From positions 1 to 57,858 of IMG/VR virus record IMGVR_UViG_3300021197_001472: a stretch of DNA of 57,858 bases; one strand, given 5' to 3'. Every line of letters starts with the position of its first letter. The stretch's first letter is position 1. Below the pieces are notes generated by a model. It was given only the letters and a program-made list of their open reading frames with translations, had not been told where the DNA came from and ran no database searches. This DNA comes from a virus. Lineage: Duplodnaviria > Caudoviricetes. The translations under genes were made by a program, and so were the position numbers. Positions 1,304-57,858 of the stretch are shown in pieces.

Positions 1304-1966
1304 CTAGTGTACGAGTTCGCCCCATTGTTCAGCCATTGCTTCTGCAAAGGCGGGGAAGAAACGGCTTCGATCTTCTGATCTTGTCGGACTAGGTGGAGCT
1401 AAGTGGATGTCTTGCCGAGCCGTTGTTCCATCGAGAGTGCCAGTCGGCACTAACGTTGGTAAGTTCTGCAACCATAGACAGGTCTTCTTACTCACATTGT
1501 CTGGCCCGTCTTCGTCGTGGCCAAACTCCCATGGGTTTACGATCTGTTCATACTTGCGGAAATTTCTGATGCGTTCCTTCGCTCTCCAGTGCATGATCGG
1601 GTTCTCGACACAGATCATTGGAACATCTGCATTGAGTAGATCACCGAACAACTCGCAACCTTCGTCGAGTTCTCGCATAACATCCTCGTGTGTCATACCA
1701 CTGGGTGGATCTTCTGGCTTGAACCACCGGACACCGGAGTTGCAAAGCCTAGTGCATGGTGGATGGCAAACGATGAGCATGTCGAAGTGTTGTGTCGCTA
1801 ACATGTCACGCACGTCACACTGGAAATGTCGATTGGTTGGTACTTCTGAGGGCAACAAGTCACAACTGAATGCGTTGTGCCCACGTCGAACAAAGGCATC
1901 GCGTACCATACCAGATTTCTCACAACCAATCAGTATATCTTTCGGGTTATCCGTTTGCTGGAACAT
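1304..1966 (-). CDS. Phage-type DNA (cytosine-5) methyltransferase
   Basis: ILIGCEKSG (motif I-like), SCDL, HPPC catalytic motif IV, VENP motif VI; start ATG 1966 after AGGAG. Confidence 0.75.
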   Translation of the reverse strand: MFQQTDNPKDILIGCEKSGMVRDAFVRRGHNAFSCDLLPSEVPTNRHFQCDVRDMLATQHFDMLIVCHPPCTRLCNSGVRWFKPEDPPSGMTHEDVMRELDEGCELFGDLLNADVPMICVENPIMHWRAKERIRNFRKYEQIVNPWEFGHDEDGPDNVSKKTCLWLQNLPTLVPTGTLDGTTARQDIHLAPPSPTRSEDRSRFFPAFAEAMAEQWGELVH

Positions 1967-1976
1967 TGTCAGTCTC

Positions 1977-2264
1977 CTAGTTATTGAGGTTGCCGAGCTT
2001 GTACTCACCGCTCTTGATTTTCTTGCGTGTCTCTGCGATACCTTCGTTGAGAAACTCATTTCGATACTTGCTTGTCGTTCTTGAGTAATCCCAGTAATGC
2101 TCATCGAGCATGACCTCGCCAGACCATGTCTTGATTGCGATCTTTTGTCCGTAGGACACAAAGCATTCGCCATTAGCGAGGTGCAAAACCATCTGGTTAG
2201 CAACTGGCTTACCACTACGAGGACTCCGCATGGGTTCGAATTTCAATGCTGTCGTCGACCTCAT
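1977..2264 (-). CDS. Hypothetical phage protein (SY...WDYSRTTSKY type)
   Basis: ATG 2264 overlaps the upstream TGA; GGAGG RBS. Confidence 0.75.
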   Translation of the reverse strand: MRSTTALKFEPMRSPRSGKPVANQMVLHLANGECFVSYGQKIAIKTWSGEVMLDEHYWDYSRTTSKYRNEFLNEGIAETRKKIKSGEYKLGNLNN

Positions 2265-2650: not shown

Positions 2651-2659
2651 GACTTTCTC

Positions 2660-2896
2660 CTAGCTATGGGTGTAACCGTCAGGCTCAATGCCCAACCACA
2701 TGTTCCCTACGAAGGGAACCATTAAAGTTTCGTAATCGTAGTCCCGTGCTTCACCAACCAAACCTTGGACGGAGCCGAGGAACTCTCTATATCCTGGCTT
2801 AGTAAATCGATCGTCTGCCGACTGGATTCTCTGGAAGACTCGCTTGAGAGCGTGTCGTTGTGCTTGTGTAACTTTCAAGCCGTTTATGTTGGGCAT
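2660..2896 (-). CDS. Hypothetical phage protein (WLGIEPDGYTHS C-terminus)
   Basis: 78-aa ORF with AAGGA RBS. Confidence 0.75.
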   Translation of the reverse strand: MPNINGLKVTQAQRHALKRVFQRIQSADDRFTKPGYREFLGSVQGLVGEARDYDYETLMVPFVGNMWLGIEPDGYTHS

Positions 2897-2910
2897 AGTA
2901 AAATCCTTCT

Positions 2911-2945
2911 AAAAAAAAAGCGGCTCCCAAAAAAAGGGAACCGCT
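2911..2945 (-). terminator. Terminator-like hairpin
   Basis: AGCGG-C-TCCC/GGGA-A-CCGCT stem followed by a long T-run on the minus strand. Confidence 0.5.
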
Positions 2946-3022
2946 ATAGGTTTTTGGAGAAACAATTTGGAGAAGAAAATTCTCAGCGAACTATCTCTAA
3001 AGAGAAAAGAAAGGCGCGTATC

Positions 3023-3331
3023 CTACGTGGGATATACCCACCCACAAGGATGGCCAGTCTGATCAAACTTTGGGAGAGGTTCTCGTCGAACATCGGGGAT
3101 TTCTTCGGCAATCCAATTCACGTATTCGTCGTCAACGTGGGAGAAGTTGTCGTCAGTGTTTAACCAGTCCCGTGCCCCATCTGAGTCCGAATATCCATTG
3201 AGCATATTCTCTATCTCGTTATCAGTAGCTGATGCGTGGACTACTATCTCTGTTTCAAAGACGCAGGTTTTCACTTGCGTTACTATGATTTTCTTTAGTG
3301 GTGTTTCAAAGCTGTCTCGTTCGTTCCACAT
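3023..3331 (-). CDS. Hypothetical protein
   Basis: 102-aa ORF, AAGGGA RBS. Confidence 0.7.
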   Translation of the reverse strand: MWNERDSFETPLKKIIVTQVKTCVFETEIVVHASATDNEIENMLNGYSDSDGARDWLNTDDNFSHVDDEYVNWIAEEIPDVRREPLPKFDQTGHPCGWVYPT

Positions 3332-3413
3332 GTGTCGTTATCCCTTTCATGCGTCGTTAACCGCCCTACACAAATAGGACGAGGGGAAAAATTTGAAATA
3401 AAAGAAAAAAGAA

Positions 3414-3432
3414 AGTCTCCATTATGGAGACT
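3414..3432 (-). terminator. Rho-independent terminator candidate
   Basis: AGTCTCCA-TTA-TGGAGACT followed by a T-rich tract on the minus strand. Confidence 0.55.
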
Positions 3433-3589
3433 CCCCAAATTCAACCATCGCTAGGGATATATCCCTAGCGACTATGAAGCCGTGTTCTCGACCTGTAAGG
3501 TCGAACTCTTTGGCCACTCTTTCTTGAGCTTCTAAGCTCAAGCCATGCCATCTATCGGCAATGCTTGTTCGAGCTATTACATAGCTCAT
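3422..3589 (-). CDS. Small hypothetical protein (55 aa, MSYVIARTSIADRW...), not in ORF track
   Basis: Read by hand; GAGGGA RBS; starts 2 nt after the upstream stop. Confidence 0.6.
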   Translation of the reverse strand: MSYVIARTSIADRWHGLSLEAQERVAKEFDLTGREHGFIVARDISLAMVEFGESP

Positions 3590-3591
3590 GG

Positions 3592-3765
3592 TCAGTCCCT
3601 CCCCTCATGTGTGAATGGCCGCTCAAGCACGTCCTCGCCGTGTATGTGCTTGGCCGCAAGCGCAAGGAGCTTGTAAAGCTCCAAGAGGGTGAAACTGACT
3701 GCTGTACCTAGTACAGCAATACACCCTAGCATAGCTAGGGTACGGAAAATCTCTGCTTCAAACAT
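3592..3765 (-). CDS. Small membrane protein (57 aa)
   Basis: ATG 3765 after GGAG; one hydrophobic helix. Confidence 0.6.
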   Translation of the reverse strand: MFEAEIFRTLAMLGCIAVLGTAVSFTLLELYKLLALAAKHIHGEDVLERPFTHEGRD

Positions 3766-3778
3766 AGTTTGACTCCAT

Positions 3779-3806
3779 AAAAAAAGGGGTCTCAAAGAGA
3801 CCCCTT
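3779..3806 (-). terminator. Rho-independent terminator
   Basis: AAGGGGTCTC-AAA-GAGACCCCTT stem plus T-run on the minus strand. Confidence 0.75.
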
Positions 3807-3921
3807 GTGGTTGTTAACAAAATCTACAATCCTTTGGATTGTAACCCTGACCATTGGATGGTCAGAGCCAAAGCAAGCCCAGTGGACAAGCTCTTTACAG
3901 AGCTTATCCAGAGCTTGGTTC

Positions 3922-4389
3922 CTAGGAACCAAGAGCATCAAGCTTTGCTTGAATGGTAGCTACCGACTTGGCAGCATACTTCTTCTGCTTTGCAGAAGTA
4001 GTCGGCTTATTTAGCTTCGCTAAATTAAGAGCCAAACCTTTCTCAAGGTTTGCTTGCTTGGTAGTAGCTTTACTAGCTACTACTTGGTCGACAGTAGCTT
4101 TAGCTACTGCTTTCTTGGTCTTCCTCTTCGTTGGAGCTTTAGCTCCATCGAGAGTTGTCTTCGACAAGTTTACAAGATCTTCGATCTTGGCAGGTCGAAC
4201 ATTGTTGTCGATCTTGGCAGTAGCCAAGTCGACTAGAACAGTGTCTGGAGACACTGCAACTGCAAAGCGTTTAGCTTTGCTGTAGTTGACAAAAATCTCA
4301 TTTTTGTCGTTGATAAATACAATTCTCTTCGAGAATTTAGCGTCGTTTTTTCCGTTTACGGAAAGATTTACTTGTACTGTATTCAGCAT
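3922..4389 (-). CDS. Lys/Ala-rich basic protein
   Basis: ATG 4389 after GGAG; histone-like K/A-rich C-terminal half. Confidence 0.7.
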   Translation of the reverse strand: MLNTVQVNLSVNGKNDAKFSKRIVFINDKNEIFVNYSKAKRFAVAVSPDTVLVDLATAKIDNNVRPAKIEDLVNLSKTTLDGAKAPTKRKTKKAVAKATVDQVVASKATTKQANLEKGLALNLAKLNKPTTSAKQKKYAAKSVATIQAKLDALGS

Positions 4390-4465
4390 GATTTGATCTC
4401 CGATCAAAGTTTTTGGTTGATTTGGCGAAATGCCACTGAAATATCCCTAAAGGGAAGAAGGGGTT

Positions 4466-4735
4466 TCAAATGAAACCCCTGAGACACGCTACGACTTCGT
4501 CGTAGAGTTTGTTCCAATCTTCGATGCCTTTGGCATCGTCCATCAGAGCTATAGCTCTGGGGGCAAGATCGAAACCAATCGGCAATCTCTTCTCTAGAGA
4601 GAAGAGATTAGTGACAATAAACAATTGTTTATTGTCGATGCCAATTCCGTCGAACCGACCGTCGAAGGTCTGAAGACCTTCAATACTAGCAATTTGCATT
4701 GCTAGTTTACGATCAAGCTTTGCTTGATTAGTCAT
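4466..4735 (-). CDS. Hypothetical protein
   Basis: 89-aa ORF, AAAGGA RBS. Confidence 0.7.
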   Translation of the reverse strand: MTNQAKLDRKLAMQIASIEGLQTFDGRFDGIGIDNKQLFIVTNLFSLEKRLPIGFDLAPRAIALMDDAKGIEDWNKLYDEVVACLRGFI

Positions 4736-4819
4736 CGTTTTTCCTTTCGAAGAAAGTAAAGTCCAAACCGAGGTGATTTGGAGTCACCGAAATATCTCTA
4801 AAGAGAGTGAAGCTTCGCT

Positions 4820-5065
4820 TCACATCATGTGTGTGAGGTCTTCGACCTCTGCGAGAAGTCCAATGTCAAAATCATGTTTTAAGTGAAACTTAAAACTTGG
4901 TTTGTGAACTTGCTCTTTAACCAGACTGTAAGTCTGGTCGGAAGTCAGTATGCCTTCGGCATACTGGTTAATGAGTCCTCTTAGGACTCTTGCTTCTTTC
5001 TTTGTGAGTACAAAGTACTCACAGAACTCCGTAACCAAATCTTCGATTTGTTTTTGTATTTCCAT
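4820..5065 (-). CDS. Hypothetical protein (81 aa, MEIQKQ...)
   Basis: ATG 5065 after AAAGGA; the longer upstream extension overlaps the TerS-like gene. Confidence 0.65.
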   Translation of the reverse strand: MEIQKQIEDLVTEFCEYFVLTKKEARVLRGLINQYAEGILTSDQTYSLVKEQVHKPSFKFHLKHDFDIGLLAEVEDLTHMM

Positions 5066-5186
5066 GGTCTTCGTTCCTTTCAGAGTCGACGAAATTGTCA
5101 CCGAAATATCTCTAAAGAGAAGAAAGCGTACGCAATGCGGAAAGAACGGGACGACCAGTACTTCGTACTGGATTAATTTATTGTTT

Positions 5187-5567
5187 ATGAACAATAAAGC
5201 ACTGGAAAAAGCATCGAAGATAGCTTCGCTATCTCCGAGAGAGATTTCGAAGATTCGTTCTGACATAGTCAGAACGGTTTCTCGATTTACTGGAGACGTC
5301 GAAGACGTTTTAGAGGGAAAAAAGCGTTGGACTAACGTCCAATTTGGCCTGTATAAAACCTTGTTAAACAAGGTTTGCCCAGACATTTCCTCAACTTACG
5401 TTGAGACTTCCCCCAATGGCTCTTCGGCTCGTCTCTCTGGACTTTCCAGAGAGGAACTCGAAGAGATGGTTCGACAAAGAAAAGAGAACATCTCTAATGA
5501 TGATGGGGATTCCCTAGGGAATCTGGGGGTTTCTGCCGATGTCATTGAAAACAATGACAAAAATTAG
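5187..5567 (+). CDS. Putative terminase small subunit
   Basis: Helical 126-aa protein with LLNKVCPD and LSREELEEM segments, shortly upstream of TerL. Confidence 0.5.
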   Translation: MNNKALEKASKIASLSPREISKIRSDIVRTVSRFTGDVEDVLEGKKRWTNVQFGLYKTLLNKVCPDISSTYVETSPNGSSARLSGLSREELEEMVRQRKENISNDDGDSLGNLGVSADVIENNDKN

Positions 5568-5689
5568 ACATCTTTTCATGCTCTGTTACACAGAGCATGG
5601 GGGGGCGGTCTATGTAAAACCCCCATGGCCCCGCGCGACGGTGACCTCCCCTAGCGGGGTGGGGGTACTATCATAAAAAGGAAATCACT

Positions 5690-5959
5690 ATGGGCGAAGT
5701 TGTTAAGCTATCTGTTCACAGAAACACATTACAGAAACGTCAGCGCAAAATTACGCGCAACTCTTTAGTTGCTACTGCCAAGCAAGTGCAAAGACATAGC
5801 AAAATAGATGGCTACGCCCTTGTCACATTTACAATCACTGACCATGGAACGGTTGAACACAAAGTTCACTACGATGTCCCTACGGCATCTTTCGCTTACG
5901 TGCTTCCTCAGATGGCACAACAAGCTTTGTTCGCGTCAATCATAGGGGAGAATGATTAA
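5690..5959 (+). CDS. Hypothetical protein
   Basis: AAGGA RBS; coupled to next ORF. Confidence 0.7.
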   Translation: MGEVVKLSVHRNTLQKRQRKITRNSLVATAKQVQRHSKIDGYALVTFTITDHGTVEHKVHYDVPTASFAYVLPQMAQQALFASIIGEND

Positions 5960-6216
5960 TGAAAATAATCAACAAAGAAGCTGATCGCATACAGTCCGAA
6001 TGCACCCCAGAAGAACTAGGTCGTGCCCTTCAAGGTTTAGACCTCGAATCAATTCCTCCCCACAAGAAGTGGGAAGCCGTACGCGATCGTCTAAACGAAG
6101 TCATGTTGGCCACTACGACTGACCCCCATGAACGCGCCAAGGAACTCTTCCAGAAAGCGGCCACTACATACGGCACCCTTAGACGCAATGCCAGAAAGAC
6201 AAACCTCATCATATGA
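5959..6216 (+). CDS. Hypothetical protein
   Basis: GGGGAG RBS; TAATG and ATGA overlaps. Confidence 0.7.
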   Translation: MKIINKEADRIQSECTPEELGRALQGLDLESIPPHKKWEAVRDRLNEVMLATTTDPHERAKELFQKAATTYGTLRRNARKTNLII

Positions 6217-31484: not shown

Positions 31485-34400
31485 ATGAAATTATCTGAAT
31501 CAGCTATACAGCGTTTGGCCGACATCAGGTCAAGAGCCGCCCCTCAACAATCTGGCTCTGACTATCTCTCAAACTTCGACCCCAAAACAGTCTTATCCAA
31601 TCCTCAATTCTTACAGGACGTTCGAGATGTTATGTCATCTCAAGGACAAGAGTTCGCGTCCGACGACGAGATGCTCCAAGAGTTTTTCTGGGAGAGAAAC
31701 TGGCGCGACCTAAACTTCGGTGCCGCAGTCGGAGGTGATGCTGGATACAACGCAGTAAACCGTGCAACAGATGACATCAAATCCAAGATGGGACGTATCC
31801 AACGCGTCTTCGATCAGTACCCTGCATTCTGGCAAGAAGGTGGCCGAGGCATTATCGAAGGTCTAGAAGACTCTGTACCTGCTCTGCTTCTTGCTCCAGA
31901 AAATCTGCTTCCAGGTGGTGCCGCAGTCAAAGCTGGCAGGGGTGCGTACGTTGCGGGGAAATCTGCGCTTGGTGCTGGTATAAAGGAAGGTGGTAAGTAC
32001 GGTTTGATTGCCAGTGCCCCCGTTGAATTTGGACAGAACATTGCCAATCAGCTTACCGATCTTGAATCCGAAGCACAGACTGAGTTCAGTGGGACTGAAC
32101 TAGCGACAGCAACTGCTCTTGGGGGTGTGTTTGGTGCTGGCGTTGGCGGTGTTATAGGTGGTGTAGCTGGAGCAGTTGGCGGTAAACTAGCTAAAGGTGC
32201 CCTACAAAAAATTGGCCAGTTACAAGACAGCAAGGCACAGATGCTCGATGCCGATCCCAACGCAGACACAAGTGCAATAGATGCAGAAATACAAGCCCTT
32301 CAACAAAAGAACGAGATACCTGCCGCACAGGAAGCAATTGAAGAAGAAGACTTTGTAGACACCACACCCGATCCCATAGAGCCAGATGAAGATCCTACTA
32401 TCGACCTCATGGCAGAGGCAGATGCAGAAAAATCTATTGCCCAGAATCTTTACAACGAGAACAACCTTGGCGGTATAGACAAACGCCTCGACAAGAGTGC
32501 CCTGAAAGATCCTGAAGTTAAGGAGTCTTTTAAGCAAGCCAAGGTCGCAATGAACAAGGCTGGAATATACAGGCAGGTAGCCCGAACACAAAAGGCAATC
32601 GAAGAGATAGATCGTAAACTTGAAACTGAAACAAACCAGAAAAAGCAATACGCGCTTGAACAAGAAAAGATCGATCTCGAAGTAAACTACGGGGCCGTAC
32701 TTGAATATGTGAAACGTGGACAGGCAGAAGAACTTGAAGACGCAGTCAATACAATGGCTGAGAACCAATACCGGAGAGACGAGAATCAACTCATGCTCGA
32801 TCTCGACGATCCTGATGCACCGAAAAAAGAGACTGCTGCTGAAACTGATCCAGAGCCTACCGCTCCTGAGCCTGAGCCTGAGCCAGTAGACGCATTGGAA
32901 GCACGTTACGCAGAGATGGCTAACGTGAACAATGCAGTCGATACAATCGAGAGCCTAAACCTTGAACCAGAACAACTTGCCTCACTGGAAGACAACCCAG
33001 AGATAATGCGTGAAATGCTTACTGGCCTTAATCAAGGTGTGGAAGGATACACCGTACCAGATCTCTCTAAAGTTTTTGCCAAGCTCAGAGGCACAGACGA
33101 GCCAGAAGTTCTTGAAGCTCCAACAGGCGTCACTGCTCAGTCTTTCAAAACCCGATTGGCTAAATCGGTCACATCGAAGATGGACTTGGATGCACTCAGC
33201 CAAGGCACCCGTCAATCATTTATGACTGACTTAGAAAAGTTCGTAGACCGACTCTCTATCCAGAAAGAAAAGACACCATCTTTCAAGATGATGGACTCTC
33301 TGCGTGAGCTTGCCGAACTTGAATACCAACGTCTCATCGAAATGGATGAAGGCCGACGTGAGGGCGGTCAATCATTCCTTGGAAGAGACGACACCTTTTT
33401 CAACAACGAAGAAGGCCGTAGGCAAGCTGGCCTTGGCAAAGCGGAAAGAAAAGCTACACGCAAAGACATCACAGAAGCCGCTGGTTTGAAGGCCCGTGCA
33501 GAACAGAATAAAGCTGAGAACGAAGCCCTCAAGGGTAAGGATGCTGACGACACTTCCAAATATAAAGACACGACCATTAGTGCCATCATGTCTACAGGTC
33601 GCAAACTACCCAATGGTAATCAGCGTTACCGAAAAGGTGACCGTGTCACCTACAACGCAGACACTAAAAAATTCACCATCGAGAAGATGTCAAAGCGACG
33701 AGGCTCCAAGGTGGCTACGCCTACTGAAGCTCTTGCAAGTATTGACGACAGTAAGGAATTTGCTGAAGCACTCGTACAACTCGTCTCTGATGGAAAGCTA
33801 GATCCATCTGCCATAGGTGAAATACAGGCACAACGCCGCGCACGATTGGCTGGTGCAAAGGAAGAAGTTGCTCCAACCGCCGCAACCGAAGAGGTTGCCC
33901 CCGCTGTTTCAACAGATACACCCGTTGAAACGACTACAGCTTCCTCGACCATGCCCCAAATACCTGATGGCCGTGTACATGCCATAAGACGCAAGAATCC
34001 AAAAAGTAAAGTTCACAAATACGAACACAGAATGCTTGGCAAGAACCAAACATCCTACGATCAGCTATACGGAAAGAGCGACCCCTCTGGCTGGGAACGT
34101 GGGCACGTAAGCATCGACGACAATCCATTCAGAGGCAAGGTGAATTTCGTGCCACTTGGCGAAGAAGCCGTGGAAGATACTGTTACTGCCGCCATAGAGA
34201 ATCCCCCGCTACCAGCCAAAGACATTCCAACAATCGAGAAGCTCCGACAAGACCCCTTGAACGACGTTAACTACATAGAAGTTGCTGGATTAGAGGGTTC
34301 CCCGTTCGAAGAGAACTTGGTTGATTTTGACAAAAGAATTAAAAAGATAGAGGATTTATACAGCGTTCTTCCAGAGTATAAAGCTTCCGAGCAAACGCGA

Positions 34401-37400
34401 TTAGAAGCATGGGGTGCATTGGATAAAATTTTCAGTGCAGGGAAACTAGAAGGCACTAGTGTTTCAGATCTTCAATTAGATAAACAGATGGCTAAAGATG
34501 TCCTCCGACGTTTGAGCAATGCCAATAAAGGAATGGCCCCTCAAATTAGCAGAGGTGACCAAGGCGCATACGTGGGAAAAACTGGTGGCATCCAACTAAG
34601 TCCTAGCATAAATGGAAGGGATCAGTATCACACCGTAATACATGAAATGTTCCATTGGGCATACATGAATGTCTTAACGCCGCAAGACCGTGGCAACATG
34701 CTCAAAGAAATGCGTTCTTATTACGCTCCTGATGGATCGCTGGACTATCAAAAAATCCAAGAGATGTCTCCCTATCTTATTCAGTTTCCAACTGAAGCGA
34801 ATAACGCTCAAAAAGCGGCGATGGTTGCGACAGGCAAACTAGATCCTATGGAAGCAAAGTACCCAACTCGAAGGACAGAAAGAGACCAAGTGGTTATGAG
34901 TCGGTTTAGCCCACAAGAGTTCTTGGCTGGACAATTTCAAATGTACGTGGAAGGTCGGCTACCGTACAAAGGGACACTGCTTTCAAAGATGGGATACTTG
35001 CTTGAACGCATAGTAGAACACATGTTTGGAATGAAGAAGAAATCCCCTGTCGATAAAAATTTAATTCCTTATTTCGATAAACTTTACAGTGACAACGCAC
35101 AAGATTTTATTTCGAGGACAAGCGACCCTACAACCCCAGAGGGTAAATCTATTGAAACCATTATGGATGGGTTCAATAACCAGAGAATAGACTTAGAAGA
35201 CGCATTTGATAATGTATCCGATGTAGACGGCAGAACTGTTTATGGCCCCTCCTCCAGACAGATCAGACAATCATACAATTCTCTTGATGCTTTAATAGAG
35301 CCTGATGAAACAGGTGTGTCAGTTGCATCAGACTTGGTGAGGGAAACAGAACTTGGTCGCGCACTGAATGACAGCCCGACAGTCAGGCAAGAATTAGCAA
35401 AGGTTCTTGATGATATAAACATACTGCTTCGCAAGGACGCTAATCCCTCTGGTTCTCCCATATCAAGTCCATTGGATCGTTTAGATGCAGGTAATCGCGT
35501 GATTGATGCTTTTGATATGATCGATGAAGCCTTATTCCAAAGATATAAAAGCGTCGAGGGTTCCAACCCACGGCCTGTGGCCATTCCTGTCAGACCAATA
35601 AAGCAAGCAACTTCTGGAGAGGGTAAAAGGAATCAAAAACTTCTTGAAGATGTAAGAGAAGCACAGGTCAAATTTCAACAGGAATTTTCAGAGTCAGGTT
35701 CAAGTCGAGAAGAGTTAAAATCGATACTGCAAATGGTAACCGAATTTACATCTGGCCTCTCATATCACGGGGGCAATCCATTAGCTGGCTCTGTCCGACG
35801 TATTGGTAATCGCACAAGCAATCCCAAGAATAGAAATTTAGTTGTAGGAGAAAAGGCAGAGCGTCTCTCGTTACCAACCAGAGCAACAGCCGCTCAAATT
35901 GCAGAGAACCCAGACAACGCTTACTTTGGATACGACAAACGTTTTCTACTCCCTGGCACCATCCAGAAAATCTCCAGAGATATGAGGGCGATGATGGGCT
36001 TAGAGGGTAAAGGTACTACCAAAGAAGATGTAGCTATGTATGCCGACATGGACGAACAAACGTGGGTTACCACGGCAGTCAATTCATTTGATGACATGAT
36101 GGATCAGATGTATCTGGCAGATACAAGACTGCAATTTAAAATTATTCACGAAGACCGACTGCAAGTCAAAAGGGACAAAGCTACTGCCAAGGCCAACAGG
36201 CAAAAAGTTGTTGAGAAAAAACGTGTAGAGGTAGCGAAGGAATCTAAAAAGGTCGCAGACAAGAAACCAGTGGATACAAAGCCAACGCCAACCAAGAAGA
36301 CACGCAAGAAAACCCGCACAAATAAACGCACGAAGACTGCCCCTGCTAGATCTCTCGATGAGGAAATCAGGACAAAGCCTGAGACACAACGTTCGCGTGA
36401 CATAGGCGCGGAATGGATACGACGTGTTCGAGCCGCATCTGACATCGAACCTGTAGCCATTGATATGGACACAGTGCGTATGCCCGACGCCGAACTTGAG
36501 AGTAGTCTTATCAAGGCTCTTAACGACGGCAACAAAAAAGATGTACAGAAGTATAGCTACGAGATGTTCCTTCGAAACAATCCAGACGCAAAGCCAATCT
36601 TAAAATTCGAAAGCCCAAAACTTGTTGGCCTTCTCGAACTTGAAGACCTGCACACACGCGGAGTGTCCAGAGTAGAAGGTGTGCCTAATGATGCACCCGA
36701 ATACATCCGGTCAGTCTTAACCAAGGTCACACACAGAGATCCCGACACACAACGTGTGGCACGAAACTTGGCTCATCGTCTGTTGCTCCTAAGCGATAGC
36801 CCAGCTAAAGCTGATGAAAAATTTGACATCAACGGGGATGGGTTCAACGATTTCAGAAACGAACTTCGCTCCCTGTCGAAAGCACTAGTTGGCTCTGGCA
36901 AAACACAAACAATGTCTGGCGCGGAAACAGTTGATATGGCCATGCGCTTGGCAATACAAGCAAACCCCCTCACCGACCTCGACGCAAAGATTATCAAAAA
37001 GCAGTTTGATTTAGATCAATTCCAAGCTGTTCGCGTTGAAGTCGAAAGAGATATGCTTGGAGACAACACACAGGACATGGCAAACGAATGGTTCATGCGT
37101 ATGCTTTCCAAGGCTATATCTGGCGAACGGGGAGAAGCTCCGTTCACAGGTAGTGGATTTGAACACCTCAACAATCTTGTAAAAGAACGCATCAAAGACA
37201 CGAGCTACCTAGTGAATGGATTGATGAGCAGAGGTGATGTTCGCAAAGCAGGTAGACGCCTAACCCTATACGGTGATCTGTTTAAAAATGTCACGCCCAA
37301 AGACAATGAGTTACGCATGGTAAACCAAAAGCAATTCATTGGCAGTGGCCTTGGTGCTGATGCTGAGGGGAATCCGATCACTTACTACCACTCTTCCCCG

Positions 37401-40400
37401 AACACGAAAGTATTCGACGAAAAAGATTTTATCTTTGATGGCTCTTCTGGATTTACTAAATACGGCAAGGGAATATACCTATCTAGGCGTCCAGAAGTTT
37501 CTTCGGAAATGTTTGCCGACATGCCCACCCCAATGGCAATGGACAGGATGATGCGAAACGCTACATCAAGTCCCGAAGAATTGGGTTTAGGTATGCATGT
37601 AGTTGAAGATTATCTGGAGGTTCGTTCAAATCTTCGTGAGATAGATAACGATTTAAGAAACAACGTTGATTTACCATTCGATGTTGATGGTGTTGTCTAT
37701 AACCTAATCGAAAAGTCTGAAGACTTGACCAGACAGTTAAAAGATTTTGGCGTTGAGATGTCACCTGGAACCGTTCCTGTGATTGTACGGGCAGAGAATC
37801 CTTTAGACATTACAGAAGCTACTAAAATAACCAAAGCCAGCTACGACTCTGGCATAGGTCAAGTAGTCGAGCAACTCGATAGTGCTGGCCTCATCGACAT
37901 GGAATATTTAGATTCAAAGTTAGCTGGTATGGGGCGTCCCATGTTTGCGAAAACTTTCATGGCACAGGACGTTTACATCAATGTTTTAGACGCCATGGTA
38001 CAGCAACGTATGAAGACGCCTGATACAACCGATCGCCCTATAGATGTCATAGGTCTCGAAGACCAAATAACGACAAGAGACTTATTCAATGAAGTAGCTG
38101 AGTTCATAGGTTTCGATAGCTTGAGAACCACTGAGTACAATTCAAACCTTGAGCAAGGAGGCCGGACTGACTCCTATGAAGGGGCAGTGATTTTCAACTC
38201 ATCATCTGTCAAGCATCCAGACGCAGAATACTTTGATAGCGATAGCCCATTCTTCTGGGAAAGCCCACAGACTTCTGCACAATCCCCGCAAGGAAAGTTA
38301 TTCCAGACTCTTGTGACAGACGAGGATGCCACTGCCGCAAACACTGGCCAGTTTTACACTGACGCAGAAGGATTGGGAGCGCATCCATCAGTCGTTGATG
38401 CAATGAAAAAGATCGGGGCCAAGAAAGAATTAGCTACCGAAGACTATCAAGCTCTATCCAAATACAACCCGATACGTTTCCTATCCGACAACGCAAAGAA
38501 GCTCCGGTACAACAACATGCATTGGTTAGGTAACTGGGCGAAGCCAGAGGATGGCGTCTCCATTCACGACACAGAGAATGCTGACATGGCTAAGAAGGTA
38601 ATGCCTCTCTTCACCGAAATGAAAAAGTTATCTGGTGAAGGTAAGGTCATGCGCTGGGGCAGAGGTTTAAAATTCTATGGGCAAGCAAGCCAACCAAAAG
38701 AGTACAAGAATATCGTTCGTGCATTACGAAGACAGAGTCAAAACAACTTACAAAACTTGACTGCTGCCGAAAAGAAAGTTGCCGTCGCGATACGCTCTCG
38801 CTTTGATCTTGAACTACAGGACATGAAAGACGCTGGCATACGCGTTGGCACAATACCTGATAACTACTTCCCACAAGTCTGGAACGTCGAGGCTATCAGG
38901 GAAAACTACAGTAAATTCACAAAAGCTTTGACAGCTTACCTACACAAAGAACAGACGACACGGCTAAAGCCCAGTGAATACAGAGAAGTACGCGATCTCC
39001 AAGACATCGCAGATCACATGGCCAACACACTCATAGCTGAAGACGGTGTTTACTTGCCGCATCAATCCTCAAAGTATGCAAGGGCGGGTGGTAAGACAGA
39101 CGCTGAGTATATGAGATTGATCCGTTTGAACGAAGCAGATGGTAAAGGCAAACTCGTATATGAAGACGTCCTAAATTTTATGGAGAAGGAAGGATTCCTA
39201 GCAGACGACTTACAATCTGTAATCAGTAAATACTTTGAGGGAACTACCAGACGCATAGCGTACCAGAAGAAATTTGGTACAAACAACCATGGCTTCTACG
39301 ATTACATACAGGTACGAGCTAACGGCGCGAAGGAAGCAGTCAAGCTTCTATCCACTGATAAAGTCGTAACCTCTACCCGTAAACGATACCCAGAATTTGG
39401 CCAAGGTATAGAGAACCACACTGTTCGTATCCCAGAACTACGAGGTATGCGCGAAGACCAAGCTGACATGGCCGTTCAGATTGCTATGCAGAACATAGAG
39501 AATGGTGCAGGGGTTCAACAAACGATGAACTATCTGAACGCACTCAAGCCCAACTCTGGCCGTGGCTACCGCCGACGTGTGGAAGCTATCGCCAATGGCC
39601 TAGTCGAACATCAAAAATTCGGGAACCTAGAAAAGAAATCCGCGACCGATACCGATCCAGTTGTATTTGCCGAAAACTATTTCAGTATCCTACAGGGCAG
39701 ACCCGTGAACAACGACGCATATTTCCAGACACGAAGGCGCGTATCGAAAGGTGCCCGTGCATTTAACTCTGTCACCTTACTTGGCTTCACCACCTTGACA
39801 TCATTCACTGATGTGAGCTTGCCATTTATTCGCGGGGCACGTTTCAGAGATGCAACGAAAGCACTGTACAATTCTACCGTTGGCCCTGACGCAAAACATT
39901 ATCGTGCGGCCCTCGCTTCTGTAGGTGCATCAATGGACAACATCACCCATAGCAGAATGACTATGTTGTACGGTGGAACAGGCGGGAAAATATCAAACGC
40001 TTTCTTCAATGCGAACTTGCTCACGCCATGGACTAACGGCATGAAGGAAGCCGCTGTTGCGATTGGCTACGAGATGCTTAAAGCGAACGCCCGTATTGCA
40101 CAGGAAGCACGACAGTCTGGGGTCATAGGGCAAAGCAGAAAGTTCCGACAAGCTAAACGAAAGCTATCGCAGTTTGGACTCGGTGATTACGCCGACAACG
40201 ATCGATCACTAGAAGATGTTGCTCTCTTATACGACGACCCTCGTTTGAGAGCGGCCCTTCACAAGTTTAGCGGAGAGTCCATATTCTCGCCGTCCAAAAC
40301 AGATGTGCCATTGATCTTTCAAGACCCCATGTCACCAGAGGGTGCGATGCTGTTCCAGCTTAAATCATACCCGCTTATGTATCAGCGTTTGGCATACCGC

Positions 40401-40979
40401 ACATTCAACGAAGCCAAGCGTTGGGTAGTCAATGGCGATGGAGACATTGGCCCCCTCATAAATATGGCAACAATTGGAACCGGATCAGGTGCCCTCGCAC
40501 TATTGGCCAAGGACATTGTCCAAATGCGTGGTGGTGATGACGAACGATCTTCGGCTCCACGGGAACGATCATACAACAAGATCATGGAAGAGCTTGGCTA
40601 TGACGCTCGTATCCATGGTGACGACAAGGACGCATTTGCTGGATGGGCCATTGAGAGCATCATGCACATGGGAGGACTTGGTCTGGTTGCAGACGTTTTC
40701 TATCAAGCCGCAATGCAAGGGGAGAAAGGTTCATACGGAACCAATCGTATCATGGGTCTTATCGCTGGCCCGACTTACGGATCAGTCTATGACGCAGTCG
40801 GCGTGGTTCAAGGCGTAGACTCTGATGGAATATCACGGGCGGCTACTCGAAGTCTTGCTCAACGCATTCCGTTCATCACACGAGACTGGAGAGAGAGCAT
40901 CATCGACACTGTGGCTCGTGATCCCAAAAACAAAAAGAAGAAGGGTATGAAATCAGGCTTATCGAGTGGACTCAAATAG
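31485..40979 (+). CDS. Giant ejected polyvalent protein (zincin-like peptidase, ART-like and DNA-transfer regions)
   Basis: 3164 aa; Gly-rich hydrophobic segment, HEMFH (34641-34655), YYHSS...YGKGIYLS...NPLD...VIFNSSSVK ART-PolyVal-like signature. Confidence 0.75.
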   Translation: MKLSESAIQRLADIRSRAAPQQSGSDYLSNFDPKTVLSNPQFLQDVRDVMSSQGQEFASDDEMLQEFFWERNWRDLNFGAAVGGDAGYNAVNRATDDIKSKMGRIQRVFDQYPAFWQEGGRGIIEGLEDSVPALLLAPENLLPGGAAVKAGRGAYVAGKSALGAGIKEGGKYGLIASAPVEFGQNIANQLTDLESEAQTEFSGTELATATALGGVFGAGVGGVIGGVAGAVGGKLAKGALQKIGQLQDSKAQMLDADPNADTSAIDAEIQALQQKNEIPAAQEAIEEEDFVDTTPDPIEPDEDPTIDLMAEADAEKSIAQNLYNENNLGGIDKRLDKSALKDPEVKESFKQAKVAMNKAGIYRQVARTQKAIEEIDRKLETETNQKKQYALEQEKIDLEVNYGAVLEYVKRGQAEELEDAVNTMAENQYRRDENQLMLDLDDPDAPKKETAAETDPEPTAPEPEPEPVDALEARYAEMANVNNAVDTIESLNLEPEQLASLEDNPEIMREMLTGLNQGVEGYTVPDLSKVFAKLRGTDEPEVLEAPTGVTAQSFKTRLAKSVTSKMDLDALSQGTRQSFMTDLEKFVDRLSIQKEKTPSFKMMDSLRELAELEYQRLIEMDEGRREGGQSFLGRDDTFFNNEEGRRQAGLGKAERKATRKDITEAAGLKARAEQNKAENEALKGKDADDTSKYKDTTISAIMSTGRKLPNGNQRYRKGDRVTYNADTKKFTIEKMSKRRGSKVATPTEALASIDDSKEFAEALVQLVSDGKLDPSAIGEIQAQRRARLAGAKEEVAPTAATEEVAPAVSTDTPVETTTASSTMPQIPDGRVHAIRRKNPKSKVHKYEHRMLGKNQTSYDQLYGKSDPSGWERGHVSIDDNPFRGKVNFVPLGEEAVEDTVTAAIENPPLPAKDIPTIEKLRQDPLNDVNYIEVAGLEGSPFEENLVDFDKRIKKIEDLYSVLPEYKASEQTRLEAWGALDKIFSAGKLEGTSVSDLQLDKQMAKDVLRRLSNANKGMAPQISRGDQGAYVGKTGGIQLSPSINGRDQYHTVIHEMFHWAYMNVLTPQDRGNMLKEMRSYYAPDGSLDYQKIQEMSPYLIQFPTEANNAQKAAMVATGKLDPMEAKYPTRRTERDQVVMSRFSPQEFLAGQFQMYVEGRLPYKGTLLSKMGYLLERIVEHMFGMKKKSPVDKNLIPYFDKLYSDNAQDFISRTSDPTTPEGKSIETIMDGFNNQRIDLEDAFDNVSDVDGRTVYGPSSRQIRQSYNSLDALIEPDETGVSVASDLVRETELGRALNDSPTVRQELAKVLDDINILLRKDANPSGSPISSPLDRLDAGNRVIDAFDMIDEALFQRYKSVEGSNPRPVAIPVRPIKQATSGEGKRNQKLLEDVREAQVKFQQEFSESGSSREELKSILQMVTEFTSGLSYHGGNPLAGSVRRIGNRTSNPKNRNLVVGEKAERLSLPTRATAAQIAENPDNAYFGYDKRFLLPGTIQKISRDMRAMMGLEGKGTTKEDVAMYADMDEQTWVTTAVNSFDDMMDQMYLADTRLQFKIIHEDRLQVKRDKATAKANRQKVVEKKRVEVAKESKKVADKKPVDTKPTPTKKTRKKTRTNKRTKTAPARSLDEEIRTKPETQRSRDIGAEWIRRVRAASDIEPVAIDMDTVRMPDAELESSLIKALNDGNKKDVQKYSYEMFLRNNPDAKPILKFESPKLVGLLELEDLHTRGVSRVEGVPNDAPEYIRSVLTKVTHRDPDTQRVARNLAHRLLLLSDSPAKADEKFDINGDGFNDFRNELRSLSKALVGSGKTQTMSGAETVDMAMRLAIQANPLTDLDAKIIKKQFDLDQFQAVRVEVERDMLGDNTQDMANEWFMRMLSKAISGERGEAPFTGSGFEHLNNLVKERIKDTSYLVNGLMSRGDVRKAGRRLTLYGDLFKNVTPKDNELRMVNQKQFIGSGLGADAEGNPITYYHSSPNTKVFDEKDFIFDGSSGFTKYGKGIYLSRRPEVSSEMFADMPTPMAMDRMMRNATSSPEELGLGMHVVEDYLEVRSNLREIDNDLRNNVDLPFDVDGVVYNLIEKSEDLTRQLKDFGVEMSPGTVPVIVRAENPLDITEATKITKASYDSGIGQVVEQLDSAGLIDMEYLDSKLAGMGRPMFAKTFMAQDVYINVLDAMVQQRMKTPDTTDRPIDVIGLEDQITTRDLFNEVAEFIGFDSLRTTEYNSNLEQGGRTDSYEGAVIFNSSSVKHPDAEYFDSDSPFFWESPQTSAQSPQGKLFQTLVTDEDATAANTGQFYTDAEGLGAHPSVVDAMKKIGAKKELATEDYQALSKYNPIRFLSDNAKKLRYNNMHWLGNWAKPEDGVSIHDTENADMAKKVMPLFTEMKKLSGEGKVMRWGRGLKFYGQASQPKEYKNIVRALRRQSQNNLQNLTAAEKKVAVAIRSRFDLELQDMKDAGIRVGTIPDNYFPQVWNVEAIRENYSKFTKALTAYLHKEQTTRLKPSEYREVRDLQDIADHMANTLIAEDGVYLPHQSSKYARAGGKTDAEYMRLIRLNEADGKGKLVYEDVLNFMEKEGFLADDLQSVISKYFEGTTRRIAYQKKFGTNNHGFYDYIQVRANGAKEAVKLLSTDKVVTSTRKRYPEFGQGIENHTVRIPELRGMREDQADMAVQIAMQNIENGAGVQQTMNYLNALKPNSGRGYRRRVEAIANGLVEHQKFGNLEKKSATDTDPVVFAENYFSILQGRPVNNDAYFQTRRRVSKGARAFNSVTLLGFTTLTSFTDVSLPFIRGARFRDATKALYNSTVGPDAKHYRAALASVGASMDNITHSRMTMLYGGTGGKISNAFFNANLLTPWTNGMKEAAVAIGYEMLKANARIAQEARQSGVIGQSRKFRQAKRKLSQFGLGDYADNDRSLEDVALLYDDPRLRAALHKFSGESIFSPSKTDVPLIFQDPMSPEGAMLFQLKSYPLMYQRLAYRTFNEAKRWVVNGDGDIGPLINMATIGTGSGALALLAKDIVQMRGGDDERSSAPRERSYNKIMEELGYDARIHGDDKDAFAGWAIESIMHMGGLGLVADVFYQAAMQGEKGSYGTNRIMGLIAGPTYGSVYDAVGVVQGVDSDGISRAATRSLAQRIPFITRDWRESIIDTVARDPKNKKKKGMKSGLSSGLK

Positions 40980-42549: not shown

Positions 42550-42909
42550 CTATCCATCGTCCGTAAGTGACTTTTTTTTTGGGGGTCGATCGTCGTTAAT
42601 ATCCCCCGTCCACAAAGCGTGGATCAAAATCCCGACACATGCTCTCACATGGCCTAGGTGTGTAGCCCCGCTCTCAGGATCTACGTCTTCCCTATTCTGA
42701 AATTTGAGGAGATGTCTCAGAGCCGCATCAACATAGATGCTCACGCTTATTCTTTCTTCAGCCCAGTTCCATGGCTCATACTTATCTGCACCATGTGCAA
42801 ATGCTTTCGCTTCCTGTATCTGTGCTTCCGGTGGTATCAATCCTAGACGTGGCTTCTTAATTCCTTGTGCGGTCTTCGGATTTTTATCTGGCAGTTTAGT
42901 CTTCTTCAT
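42550..42909 (-). CDS. dATP/dGTP diphosphohydrolase-domain protein (DUF5664-like)
   Basis: KPRLGLIPP, GADKY..WNW, AALRH, DPESG..HLGH motifs. Confidence 0.75.
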   Translation of the reverse strand: MKKTKLPDKNPKTAQGIKKPRLGLIPPEAQIQEAKAFAHGADKYEPWNWAEERISVSIYVDAALRHLLKFQNREDVDPESGATHLGHVRACVGILIHALWTGDINDDRPPKKKSLTDDG

Positions 42910-57618: not shown

Positions 57619-57632
57619 ATAGTGGTCGAACT

Positions 57633-57858
57633 CTATGATGCACTTGGATAAGTGTACTCTGCTAACCATTTGTCGTCGGCAGTCACGAGCTTCACTGAGC
57701 CATGATTAATCAGGTCTCGAATGTAGGTGTCGGCTGGCCCTTCCCAAGTCCCGTGAGTAAACGGAGATTTAACAGCGACGTTCCATCGAGCGTAGTTGTC
57801 ATTCTTCTCAGCCGCTGAATGCTTATAGGTCTTGAGAACCCTCCACTCCCATCCACCT
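57633..57858 (-). CDS. Hypothetical phage protein (GWEWRVLKTY...YARW), apparently starting at ATG 14 across the junction
   Basis: Open frame to the window end; joins in frame with ATG AAA CAA GCT GA at 14..1, which has a GAGGAG RBS. Confidence 0.7.
   Translation of the reverse strand, partial: GGWEWRVLKTYKHSAAEKNDNYARWNVAVKSPFTHGTWEGPADTYIRDLINHGSVKLVTADDKWLAEYTYPSAS

Follow-up and report, generated by a model that had tools for sequence, protein, structure and literature searches.

A 2.2-kb island of perfect hairpins overlies a module of small genes upstream of TerL in a temperate marine phage

Why should more than two kilobases of coding DNA in a phage be tiled with short, perfect and mutually different inverted repeats, and what keeps them there? 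The question is raised by the complete IMG/VR record IMGVR_UViG_3300021197_001472 (57,858 bp, called the window throughout), in which positions 3414-5599 carry 58 perfect stem-loops spread over five leftward open reading frames (ORFs; gA, gB, gD, gE and gF) and one rightward ORF (gT). An original prediction, made from the letters alone, had counted about 50 inverted repeats in these 2.2 kb by eye and had read them as a sign of selection on DNA structure. We find that the hairpins greatly exceed what the coding sequences would yield, that they are present in two phage lineages and nearly absent in a third, and that purifying selection maintains them, with slow turnover, in the two lineages that have them. 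The explanation that we tentatively favour, as plausible if short of probable, is that an accessory gene module carries an overlay which folds on itself and is kept by selection, and which would shield the module whenever that is single-stranded.

A genome-wide scan for perfect inverted repeats (stem of at least 7 bp, loop of 0-6 nt) returned 82 in the window, 50 of which lie in the three 1-kb bins covering 3000-5999 (14, 26 and 10, respectively). The remaining 55 bins share 32, with a maximum of 2 per bin, and for stems of at least 8 bp the three island bins hold 31 of 40. The hairpin density of the island is about 30 times the background, and the early impression that nothing comparable exists elsewhere in the window is borne out. 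When perfect stems of at least 6 bp are counted, 57 of the 58 hairpins in 3414-5599 are non-overlapping, and the 58 together occupy 49% of the bases; one extra hairpin beyond the island, at 5757-5772, brings the listing to 59. The loops of these 59 measure 0-5 nt (3 nt in 32, 4 nt in 10, 2 nt in 8, 0 nt in 5, and 1 nt and 5 nt in 2 each), and the stems 6-12 bp (7 bp in 19, 8 bp in 12, 9 bp in 11, 6 bp in 9, 10 bp in 5 and 12 bp in 3). Both of the 24-bp perfect palindromes reported earlier (3448-3471 and 4613-4636) are present, as is, at 4584-4609, a stem of 12 bp whose loop has 2 nt. It had also been said that the stems are not a repeat family, and indeed only 8 small families of direct repeats were found, the largest being a promoter/operator-like motif. 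An array of repetitive extragenic palindromes (REP), miniature inverted-repeat transposable elements (MITE) or CRISPR-like units is ruled out, as the stems are not copies of one another and self-matches occur only at the palindromes.

The excess holds under the codon-preserving control that had been proposed for it. The six island ORFs contain 38 hairpins with stems of at least 7 bp, whereas synonymous-codon shuffles give a mean of 2.33 (standard deviation 1.49, maximum 7 in 500), so that the observed number is 16 times the shuffled one. Shuffles of codon order give a mean of only 0.67, and the 3.5-fold gap between the two kinds of shuffle indicates how far the protein sequence itself bends to fit the palindromes. 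Folding energies agree with the counts. Folded as single-stranded DNA, the gE strand has z = -8.88 and none of 200 dinucleotide shuffles folds equally well, compared with z = -0.45 for the adjacent hairpin-free gene g5690; the folding energy here is -63.4 kcal/mol against -29.2 kcal/mol, an approximately twofold excess. Folded as RNA against synonymous shuffles, the island genes of the window range from z = -4.1 to -7.9 and the flanking genes lie near 0. An Rfam search of the island returned one chance-level match (30.8 bits, E = 0.15, where the gathering score is 100).

That an assembly or amplification artefact lies behind this pattern has practically no chance of being right. Rows from 10 studies match the stretch by shared words, and contigs from two studies other than that of the window agree with it in at least 99% of their letters: in run X6, a contig of 2114 bp spans 2657-4770 with 4 letters different, and a 910-bp contig of the viral-fraction run X12 spans 3821-4730 with 3 letters different. 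The original prediction had named missing read support as a sign of artefact, and these contigs agree with the record; moreover, three further assemblies from a related lineage (L002, L089 and L093, described below) hold the same kind of island. The independent runs X6 and X12 also share a clustered three-letter variant (C>G, A>T, G>C) at 4485-4488, immediately to the left of the hairpin at 4489-4505, which is a multi-nucleotide change of the type produced by template switching.

The relatives comprise 81 loci retrieved by TerL, with L089 and L093 added by metagenome and genome scans. Among the 81, only L002 has any 1-kb bin with more than 5 hairpins; three such bins (15, 20 and 12) fill the 3 kb that lie upstream of its TerL. 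L089, of the L002 lineage, has 37 hairpins in 3.3 kb, and L093 is part of G1, a 60.6-kb contig representing a full phage genome, in which 41 of 71 hairpins fall in kb 25-27; the rest of the window and G1 genomes (58-60 kb) has about 0.5 hairpins per kb. The islands of L002, L089 and L093 lie in the same place as that of the window and have a comparable density (22-27 per kb) with mostly different stems, as would be expected if relatives keep the density and not the sequence. The earlier proposal that absence from the syntenic region of relatives would speak against the island receives a divided answer: these three loci keep it, and L001, L003 and L004, the lineage nearest to the window by TerL (88%), have no island, even though they share the same cis element beside the locus. 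For gB, gD, gE and gT, respectively, the window has 3, 12, 8 and 6 hairpins and L002 has 2, 10, 7 and 6, compared with 0, 0, 0 and 2 in the L001 orthologues. Because L001 encodes these orthologous genes almost without hairpins, the hairpins are an overlay on real genes. The RNA folding values follow the same division (z = -4.4 to -10.7 in L002, and only -1.4 to -2.0 for the island genes of L001).

The genes under the overlay have a history of their own. The proteins gB, gD and gE are 27-40% identical among the three lineages, which are about equidistant, compared with 83-88% for TerL. In gT the window is closer to L002 (70%) than to L001 (58%), yet in g5690 and TerL it groups with L001. These conflicting groupings indicate that the module has a separate history with a breakpoint at the conserved element, and this cis element coincides with a recombination breakpoint between gT and g5690. 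The island measures 2129 bp in L093 and 2465 bp in L002, where an extra gene is likewise tiled with hairpins, so that island length tracks gene content and not a fixed distance. In the lineages of both the window and L002 the island stops where transcription units end, at a terminator to the left and at the end of gT, before the conserved element, to the right.

A fainter signal extends to the distant family. In 66 of the 81 loci (the five close relatives, nine loci with a TerL match cut at a contig edge, and phage CRP-810 being excluded), the hairpin density, about 0.5 per kb elsewhere, has a mild peak of 1.3-2.6 per kb in the stretch 0.5-2 kb upstream of TerL. Within the gT orthologue, one hairpin with the sequence aaacc(c)ttgt..acaagggttt turns up again, some 770-860 bp upstream of TerL, in family members that share only about 47-50% identity in TerL (window 5356-5376; L036 5199-5220; L032 3489-3510; L051 5916-5937; L043 6776-6798), and it may be an old cis site inside the gene. 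Searches with gT, gE and the conserved cis element found no further island-bearing contigs.

What, then, keeps the hairpins in place? L093 and L089 are 10.0% diverged outside hairpins, and 591 of the 692 sites that lie in a stem in either of them (85%) lie in a stem in both, whereas a neutral-decay simulation at the same divergence retains 46% (range 34-57%). Only 4 of the 591 shared sites have changed, and this near-invariance speaks against unbiased arm-to-arm conversion as the maintaining force. Between L002 and L089 we count 7 compensatory double changes, with about 1.6 expected by our own arithmetic from 11% divergence and independent substitution. In codon alignments of the window with L002, and also with L093, five to six gT hairpins hold their position with compensating changes; the other gT hairpins are lineage-specific, and in gD and gE most hairpin positions differ between the window and L002. 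With positions differing and density staying at 22-27 per kb, the hairpins turn over at constant density. As to the selection on DNA structure proposed at the outset, selection on nucleic-acid self-complementarity, and not on the proteins, is upheld by the shuffles, the L001 orthologues and the retention of stems, and its DNA level fits the data but is not proven.

A purely mutational origin would make the same repeats a non-adaptive by-product, in which inverted repeats within weakly constrained genes would be both generated and homogenised by frequent intrastrand template switching (quasi-palindrome conversion). The stems are perfect and sharp-ended, with 15 extended stems carrying one mismatch against about 108 perfect ones in the window and L093 together, and the island genes evolve fast. 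Two exact loop inversions are found among three close relatives (TTT/AAA at L093 8907-8923 and TT/AA at L002 2205-2224), and spacer inversion is described in PMC8604942 as a mark of template switching between inverted-repeat arms; intrastrand switching thus does happen at these repeats. Nevertheless, this origin alone is distinctly unlikely to be the explanation, given the retention of stems far above neutral, the near-absence of change at shared stem sites, the sharp boundaries that match genes, the background density in the remainder of two whole genomes, and the L001 orthologues, which evolve equally fast without hairpins. New perfect stems probably come from intrastrand template switching, with selection then retaining them.

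The layout of the locus shows how closely the island is fitted to its genes:

3414..5599, no strand: the hairpin island, 58 perfect stem-loops.
3410..3436, minus strand: left boundary and first hairpin of the island, an intrinsic-terminator-like hairpin of 12 pairs with a T-run (tail TTTTTCTTTT), closing the leftward gA-gB unit.
3422..3589, minus strand: gA, a 55-aa ORF with 4 hairpins (stem of at least 7 bp), including the palindrome at 3448-3471; no family match.
3592..3765, minus strand: gB, a 57-aa small hydrophobic protein with its ATG at 3765; orthologues in L001 and L002.
3784..3806, minus strand: intrinsic terminator with a 10-bp stem and a T7 tail, following the gD unit.
3922..4389, minus strand: gD, a 155-aa Lys/Ala-rich protein with 12 hairpins; the L001 orthologue has 0.
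4439..4454, plus strand: palindromic promoter/operator-like motif AAATATCYCTAAAGRG, upstream of the leftward gD.
4466..4735, minus strand: gE, an 89-aa protein with 8 hairpins, including that at 4584-4609 and the palindrome at 4613-4636.
4820..5065, minus strand: gF, an 81-aa protein with 5 hairpins.
5187..5567, plus strand: gT, a 126-aa helical protein with 6 hairpins; its start codon lies in the loop of the hairpin at 5177-5198.
5577..5599, plus strand: the last hairpin and right boundary, a 10-bp stem directly after the gT stop; L002, L089 and L093 have a homologous last hairpin.
5640..5690, plus strand: conserved GC-rich cis element (ACCTCCCCTAGC...GGGGT.CTATCA), preceding g5690, g5959 and TerL.

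Four further hairpins lie at 3807-3921, upstream of the terminator at 3784-3806. The unit ends at 3410-3436, 3784-3806 and 4459-4480 are each formed by a terminator-like hairpin with a T-run, and intrinsic termination is ruled out as the general role of the hairpins, only 3 of the 58 having the form of a GC-rich hairpin with a T-run at a unit end; a terminator scan gives 24 terminator-like hits against 3.8 in shuffles because of the hairpin density. The motif AAATATCYCTAAAGRG has further copies in the window at 2989-3004, 4790-4805 and 5104-5119. It precedes each of gD, gE and gF, always on the plus strand and 40-55 nt upstream of the leftward start codons, and at the copy upstream of gD (4439-4454) TTGAAA-18-GATATT is found on the minus strand. 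G1 has 8 copies between 19998 and 27441 (L094-L095). The motif thus occurs in both hairpin-bearing genomes, outside their islands too, and is absent from the hairpin-poor genome G2 and from L001; it is probably an operator or promoter element. The palindrome at 3448-3471 in gA has the same half-sites (AGGGATAT / ATATCCCT) in reverse order. Hairpin loops hold the gD Shine-Dalgarno sequence as well as the gB and gT start codons.

To the right, the non-coding stretch 5600-5690 holds the blocks GGGGGG, AAAACCCCCA, ACCTCCCCTAGC and GGGGT.CTATCA, kept in all three lineages, and sits 30 nt ahead of g5690; it is a candidate for a late promoter or for a cos/pac packaging site, and the two small genes and TerL that follow it are all hairpin-free. 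None of the six island proteins has a family match in PHROG, Pfam, PADLOC or NCBIfam, and there are only sub-threshold matches, such as DUF945 for gF and, outside the island, HTH_30 for g5690. The earlier ORF set stands as far as the five leftward and one rightward ORFs carrying hairpins are concerned, but the label TerS-like for gT could not be confirmed: PHROG, Pfam and NCBIfam give no match, none of its 17 homologues is named, and its model is helical at low confidence (predicted local distance difference test score 62.8), with a best PDB fold match at E = 3.2. Elsewhere in the window, a DNA methyltransferase gene (1304-2215, minus strand; phrog_757, E = 1e-54) is 60% identical in G1 and has no counterpart in the hairpin-poor G2 (two genomes against one), and 42550-42909 (minus strand) matches the Pfam domain dGTP_diPhyd_N, the N-terminal domain of dATP/dGTP diphosphohydrolase (E = 7.6e-27). 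Enzymes of the dATP/dGTP diphosphohydrolase type go with modified-base pathways in some phages.

How would such an overlay act? Under the explanation that we favour, the locus would carry a second, nucleic-acid-level code over real genes: codon choice, together with amino-acid changes that are tolerated, would have placed some 57 perfect Watson-Crick stem-loops, all different, in six small accessory genes that evolve fast and in the short untranslated parts of these genes. The six genes form divergent transcription units, with an intrinsic terminator on one side and, on the other, the conserved element that precedes the packaging operon. Once single-stranded, whether as mRNAs or as either DNA strand when unwound, resected or displaced, the module would collapse into a string of short hairpins, and this folding would make the module less accessible to host factors that depend on hybridisation or on long single strands. 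Those hindered on RNA might be RNases and Rho; on DNA they might be single-strand nucleases, SSB/RecA and guide-based immunity. A narrower version, which we hold to be possible but doubtful, makes the island an evolved counter-defence, the coding module being recoded so that its own strands and transcripts self-fold and bar hybridisation- or single-strand-dependent immunity from first-expressed, fast-evolving host-interaction genes. Candidate targets would be CRISPR spacer capture and guide pairing, Argonaute guides, nucleases of single-stranded DNA or RNA, and Rho, and the presence or absence of the island in sister lineages would then mirror the hosts met.

Which molecule folds is approached from several sides. 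The strict Watson-Crick pairing of the stems and their strand symmetry fit a DNA-level property without proving it. Toward transcripts point the boundaries at unit ends, the length that follows gene content, the long spacers at promoters and the start codons in loops. In the window, no spacer between hairpins is shorter than 3 nt (7.8 expected), and 6 of 56 exceed 30 nt against 11.8 expected (P = 0.002), the other 50 measuring at most 29 nt; three of the six long spacers fall at promoters and gene starts. The loops say less. All five of the C-GAA-G loops (minus strand; cTTCg) cited in the original prediction were found, and there are 10 such triloops in total. In the leftward genes 69% of sense-strand loop bases are purines against a background of 52%, with GAA in 8 of 27 triloops, but 5 of the 7 intragenic GAA loops are in-frame Glu codons. 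Since such codons account for most of these loops, they are weak evidence for DNA mini-hairpins and were set aside as a sign of them. The closing pair is 5'-pyrimidine/3'-purine in 42 of 46, a bias that may follow from codon structure and that was likewise set aside.

Several observations weigh against the shielding fold as we picture it. G·U pairing leaves no mark: among 162 stem-end mismatches 36 are G·U, 23 A·C and 103 other, 15 longer stems with one internal mismatch have 2 G·U, 2 A·C and 11 other, and single changes on the sense strand lead to G·U in 18 cases and to A·C in 23. Sense and antisense RNAs fold equally well (10 units), which argues against a purely mRNA-level function, and with no use of G·U and strand symmetry, the folding data do not discriminate between DNA and RNA as the acting molecule. 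Regularity of spacing reaches significance in the window but not in L093 or L089, whose hairpins do not depart significantly from random placement. Contigs from the RNA libraries X18 and X19 span 4001-4435 and 5516-5674 plus flanking genes, and as they may be DNA carry-over they are no sign of transcription. In G1, leftward genes just past the island carry AAATATCYCTAAAGRG and no hairpins, which argues against a simple rule by transcript class. Finally, the substitution rate in stems, 6.1% against 10.0% outside, lies at the lower edge of the range expected from ascertainment only (6.0-9.2%). We have withdrawn it as proof of selection and, because ascertainment accounts for most of the drop, it is the retention statistic that carries the weight, with a neutral simulation that assumes all hairpins to be older than the split of L093 and L089.

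Could a position near one end of the packaged genome explain the island instead? The phage is a member of the temperate CRP-810-type family of marine phages, described in PMC11288001, whose main text does not contain the words hairpin, palindrome or inverted repeat. Its TerL is 47% identical to that of CRP-810, and its gene content includes CobS/CobT-like genes as well as those for an integrase and a PrimPol-helicase. An ORF of 79 codons that has a ribosome-binding site (GAGGAG) crosses the junction between the end and the start of the record (57620-57858 joined to 1-46), so that the record is a circular permutation cut within a gene; both full genomes assemble as circles, the window by this junction ORF and G1 by a 19-bp end overlap. 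The CRP-810 record begins at gene 1 and is therefore linearised at an arbitrary point. The earlier placement near the packaging end thus stands as a position on the gene map, 0.6 kb upstream of TerL, and not as a physical end, which a circularly permuted record does not reveal.

The original prediction envisaged single-stranded or cruciform DNA structures at the last-packaged, first-injected end, serving end protection, staged ejection or as a decoy against defence. The island does adjoin the GC-rich cis element just upstream of two small genes and TerL, the usual place of cos/pac sites, transcription from its leftward promoters would proceed into the remainder of the genome, as from the leading-end promoters in T7-like entry, its stems are strictly Watson-Crick and fold symmetrically on both strands, and its genes evolve rapidly in the manner of early host-interaction genes. 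Against this stand the circular assembly of both full genomes, an island length that tracks gene content, the cis element without an island in L001, L003 and L004, and stems of 6-12 bp, which are short for cruciform extrusion; on balance we consider this reading unlikely, though worth keeping in view.

The last point bears also on a role in double-stranded DNA, in which many small cruciforms would absorb transcription supercoils or provide sites for a structure-specific protein such as a Holliday-junction resolvase. Classic extruding repeats have arms of 11-13 bp, and most arms here are 7-9 bp. Both strands are equally self-complementary, as cruciforms need, the loops are short and A/T-rich, and the island covers divergent transcription units. 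A junction resolvase is encoded by the CRP-810-type family according to PMC11288001, but nothing ties the resolvase to this region, and the island-less sister lineage shares the replication and recombination genes compared, the junction resolvase not being among them. We give this role only a slight chance.

The analogy with phage N4, drawn at the outset from the loops, would have the hairpins act as single-strand promoters or as priming (single-strand initiation, ssi) signals for an injected polymerase or PrimPol. Loops of 3 nt on stems of 6-9 bp do resemble N4 early promoters, and the genome encodes both a PrimPol-helicase and a 3164-aa ORF (31485-40979). However, searches of Pfam, PHROG and PDB sequences give no match for this giant ORF and no RNA-polymerase signal; its neighbours in the ESM Atlas, a lead only, are not polymerases but clusters of phage polyvalent proteins bearing LPD and ART-PolyVal domains, and they suggest a protein of several domains that is injected. 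The hairpins all differ, are mostly intragenic and have no common flanking sequence, in place of a few hairpins upstream of genes; the promoters upstream of the genes look like ordinary sigma-70-type, operator-bearing ones; and the hairpin-poor lineage shares both the giant ORF and the PrimPol. The analogy yields no positive signal and is very improbable.

If the self-folding overlay is functional, the protein-coding DNA of a phage can hold a structural code that is dense, under selection and invisible to gene annotation, and that can be switched on or off between close relatives with the same proteins, and it may represent a protein-free class of defence evasion. The window and L093 with hairpins, and L001 and L003 without them, form a natural matched pair for studying the role of short hairpins of single-stranded DNA or RNA in infection. 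Hairpin density measured against synonymous shuffles also provides a search rule for viral metagenomes.

A literature search at title and abstract level, with most subscription journals outside its coverage, found no such island described for any phage. The nearest phage precedent of a palindrome-rich kilobase is the injection-stop (iss) regions of phage T5 (passages of bioRxiv 10.1101/866236), where inverted repeats and palindromes on a kilobase scale lie near the first-entering end and their function is unclear. As described there, these regions belong to the first-step-transfer DNA, are untranslated, keep their repeats in sequence and order, and contain direct repeats and DnaA boxes. The island is coding, and outside gT its stems differ between the window and L002/L093, so a T5-like injection-stop region is rejected. 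N4-type promoters are few hairpins upstream of early genes with conserved stem and flank sequence, read by a virion-packaged giant RNA polymerase. The island shares short stems and 3-nt loops with them, and its 10 C-GAA-G loops recall the d(GCGNAGC) mini-hairpins (reviewed in PMC13037366), but it has 58 hairpins, mostly within ORFs and without conserved flanks. Quasi-palindrome template-switch mutation (PMC8604942 and PMC5941160) likewise produces perfect short inverted repeats, homogenised arms and spacer inversions. It is known as a scattered mutational process and not as the builder of a bounded island of about 25 hairpins per kb retained by selection; a hotspot of it would show homogenisation and inversion without selective retention, whereas here two loop inversions go with retention far above neutral. 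Integron attC sites and the ssi/Frpo signals of plasmid leading regions are folded single-strand signals recognised by shape. They resemble the island in that structure is kept and sequence is free, and they act on single-stranded DNA early after entry, but they are single, imperfect, non-coding elements with dedicated partner enzymes, and for the island no partner of this kind was identified.

[quoted passage not shown] As in GORS, folding pervades coding sequence with an energy excess over shuffled controls, is lineage-specific without conservation of single pairings, and is of a kind thought to shield the genome from host recognition. The approximately twofold energy excess of the island is far above the median of 3.2% given for natural phage genomes in passages of PMC11409064. 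Unlike GORS, the island belongs to a double-stranded DNA phage, is confined to a 2.2-kb module and consists of discrete perfect palindromes. Being local, strand-symmetric and without G·U use, it would thus be GORS-like in its working at most, and not a member of that class.

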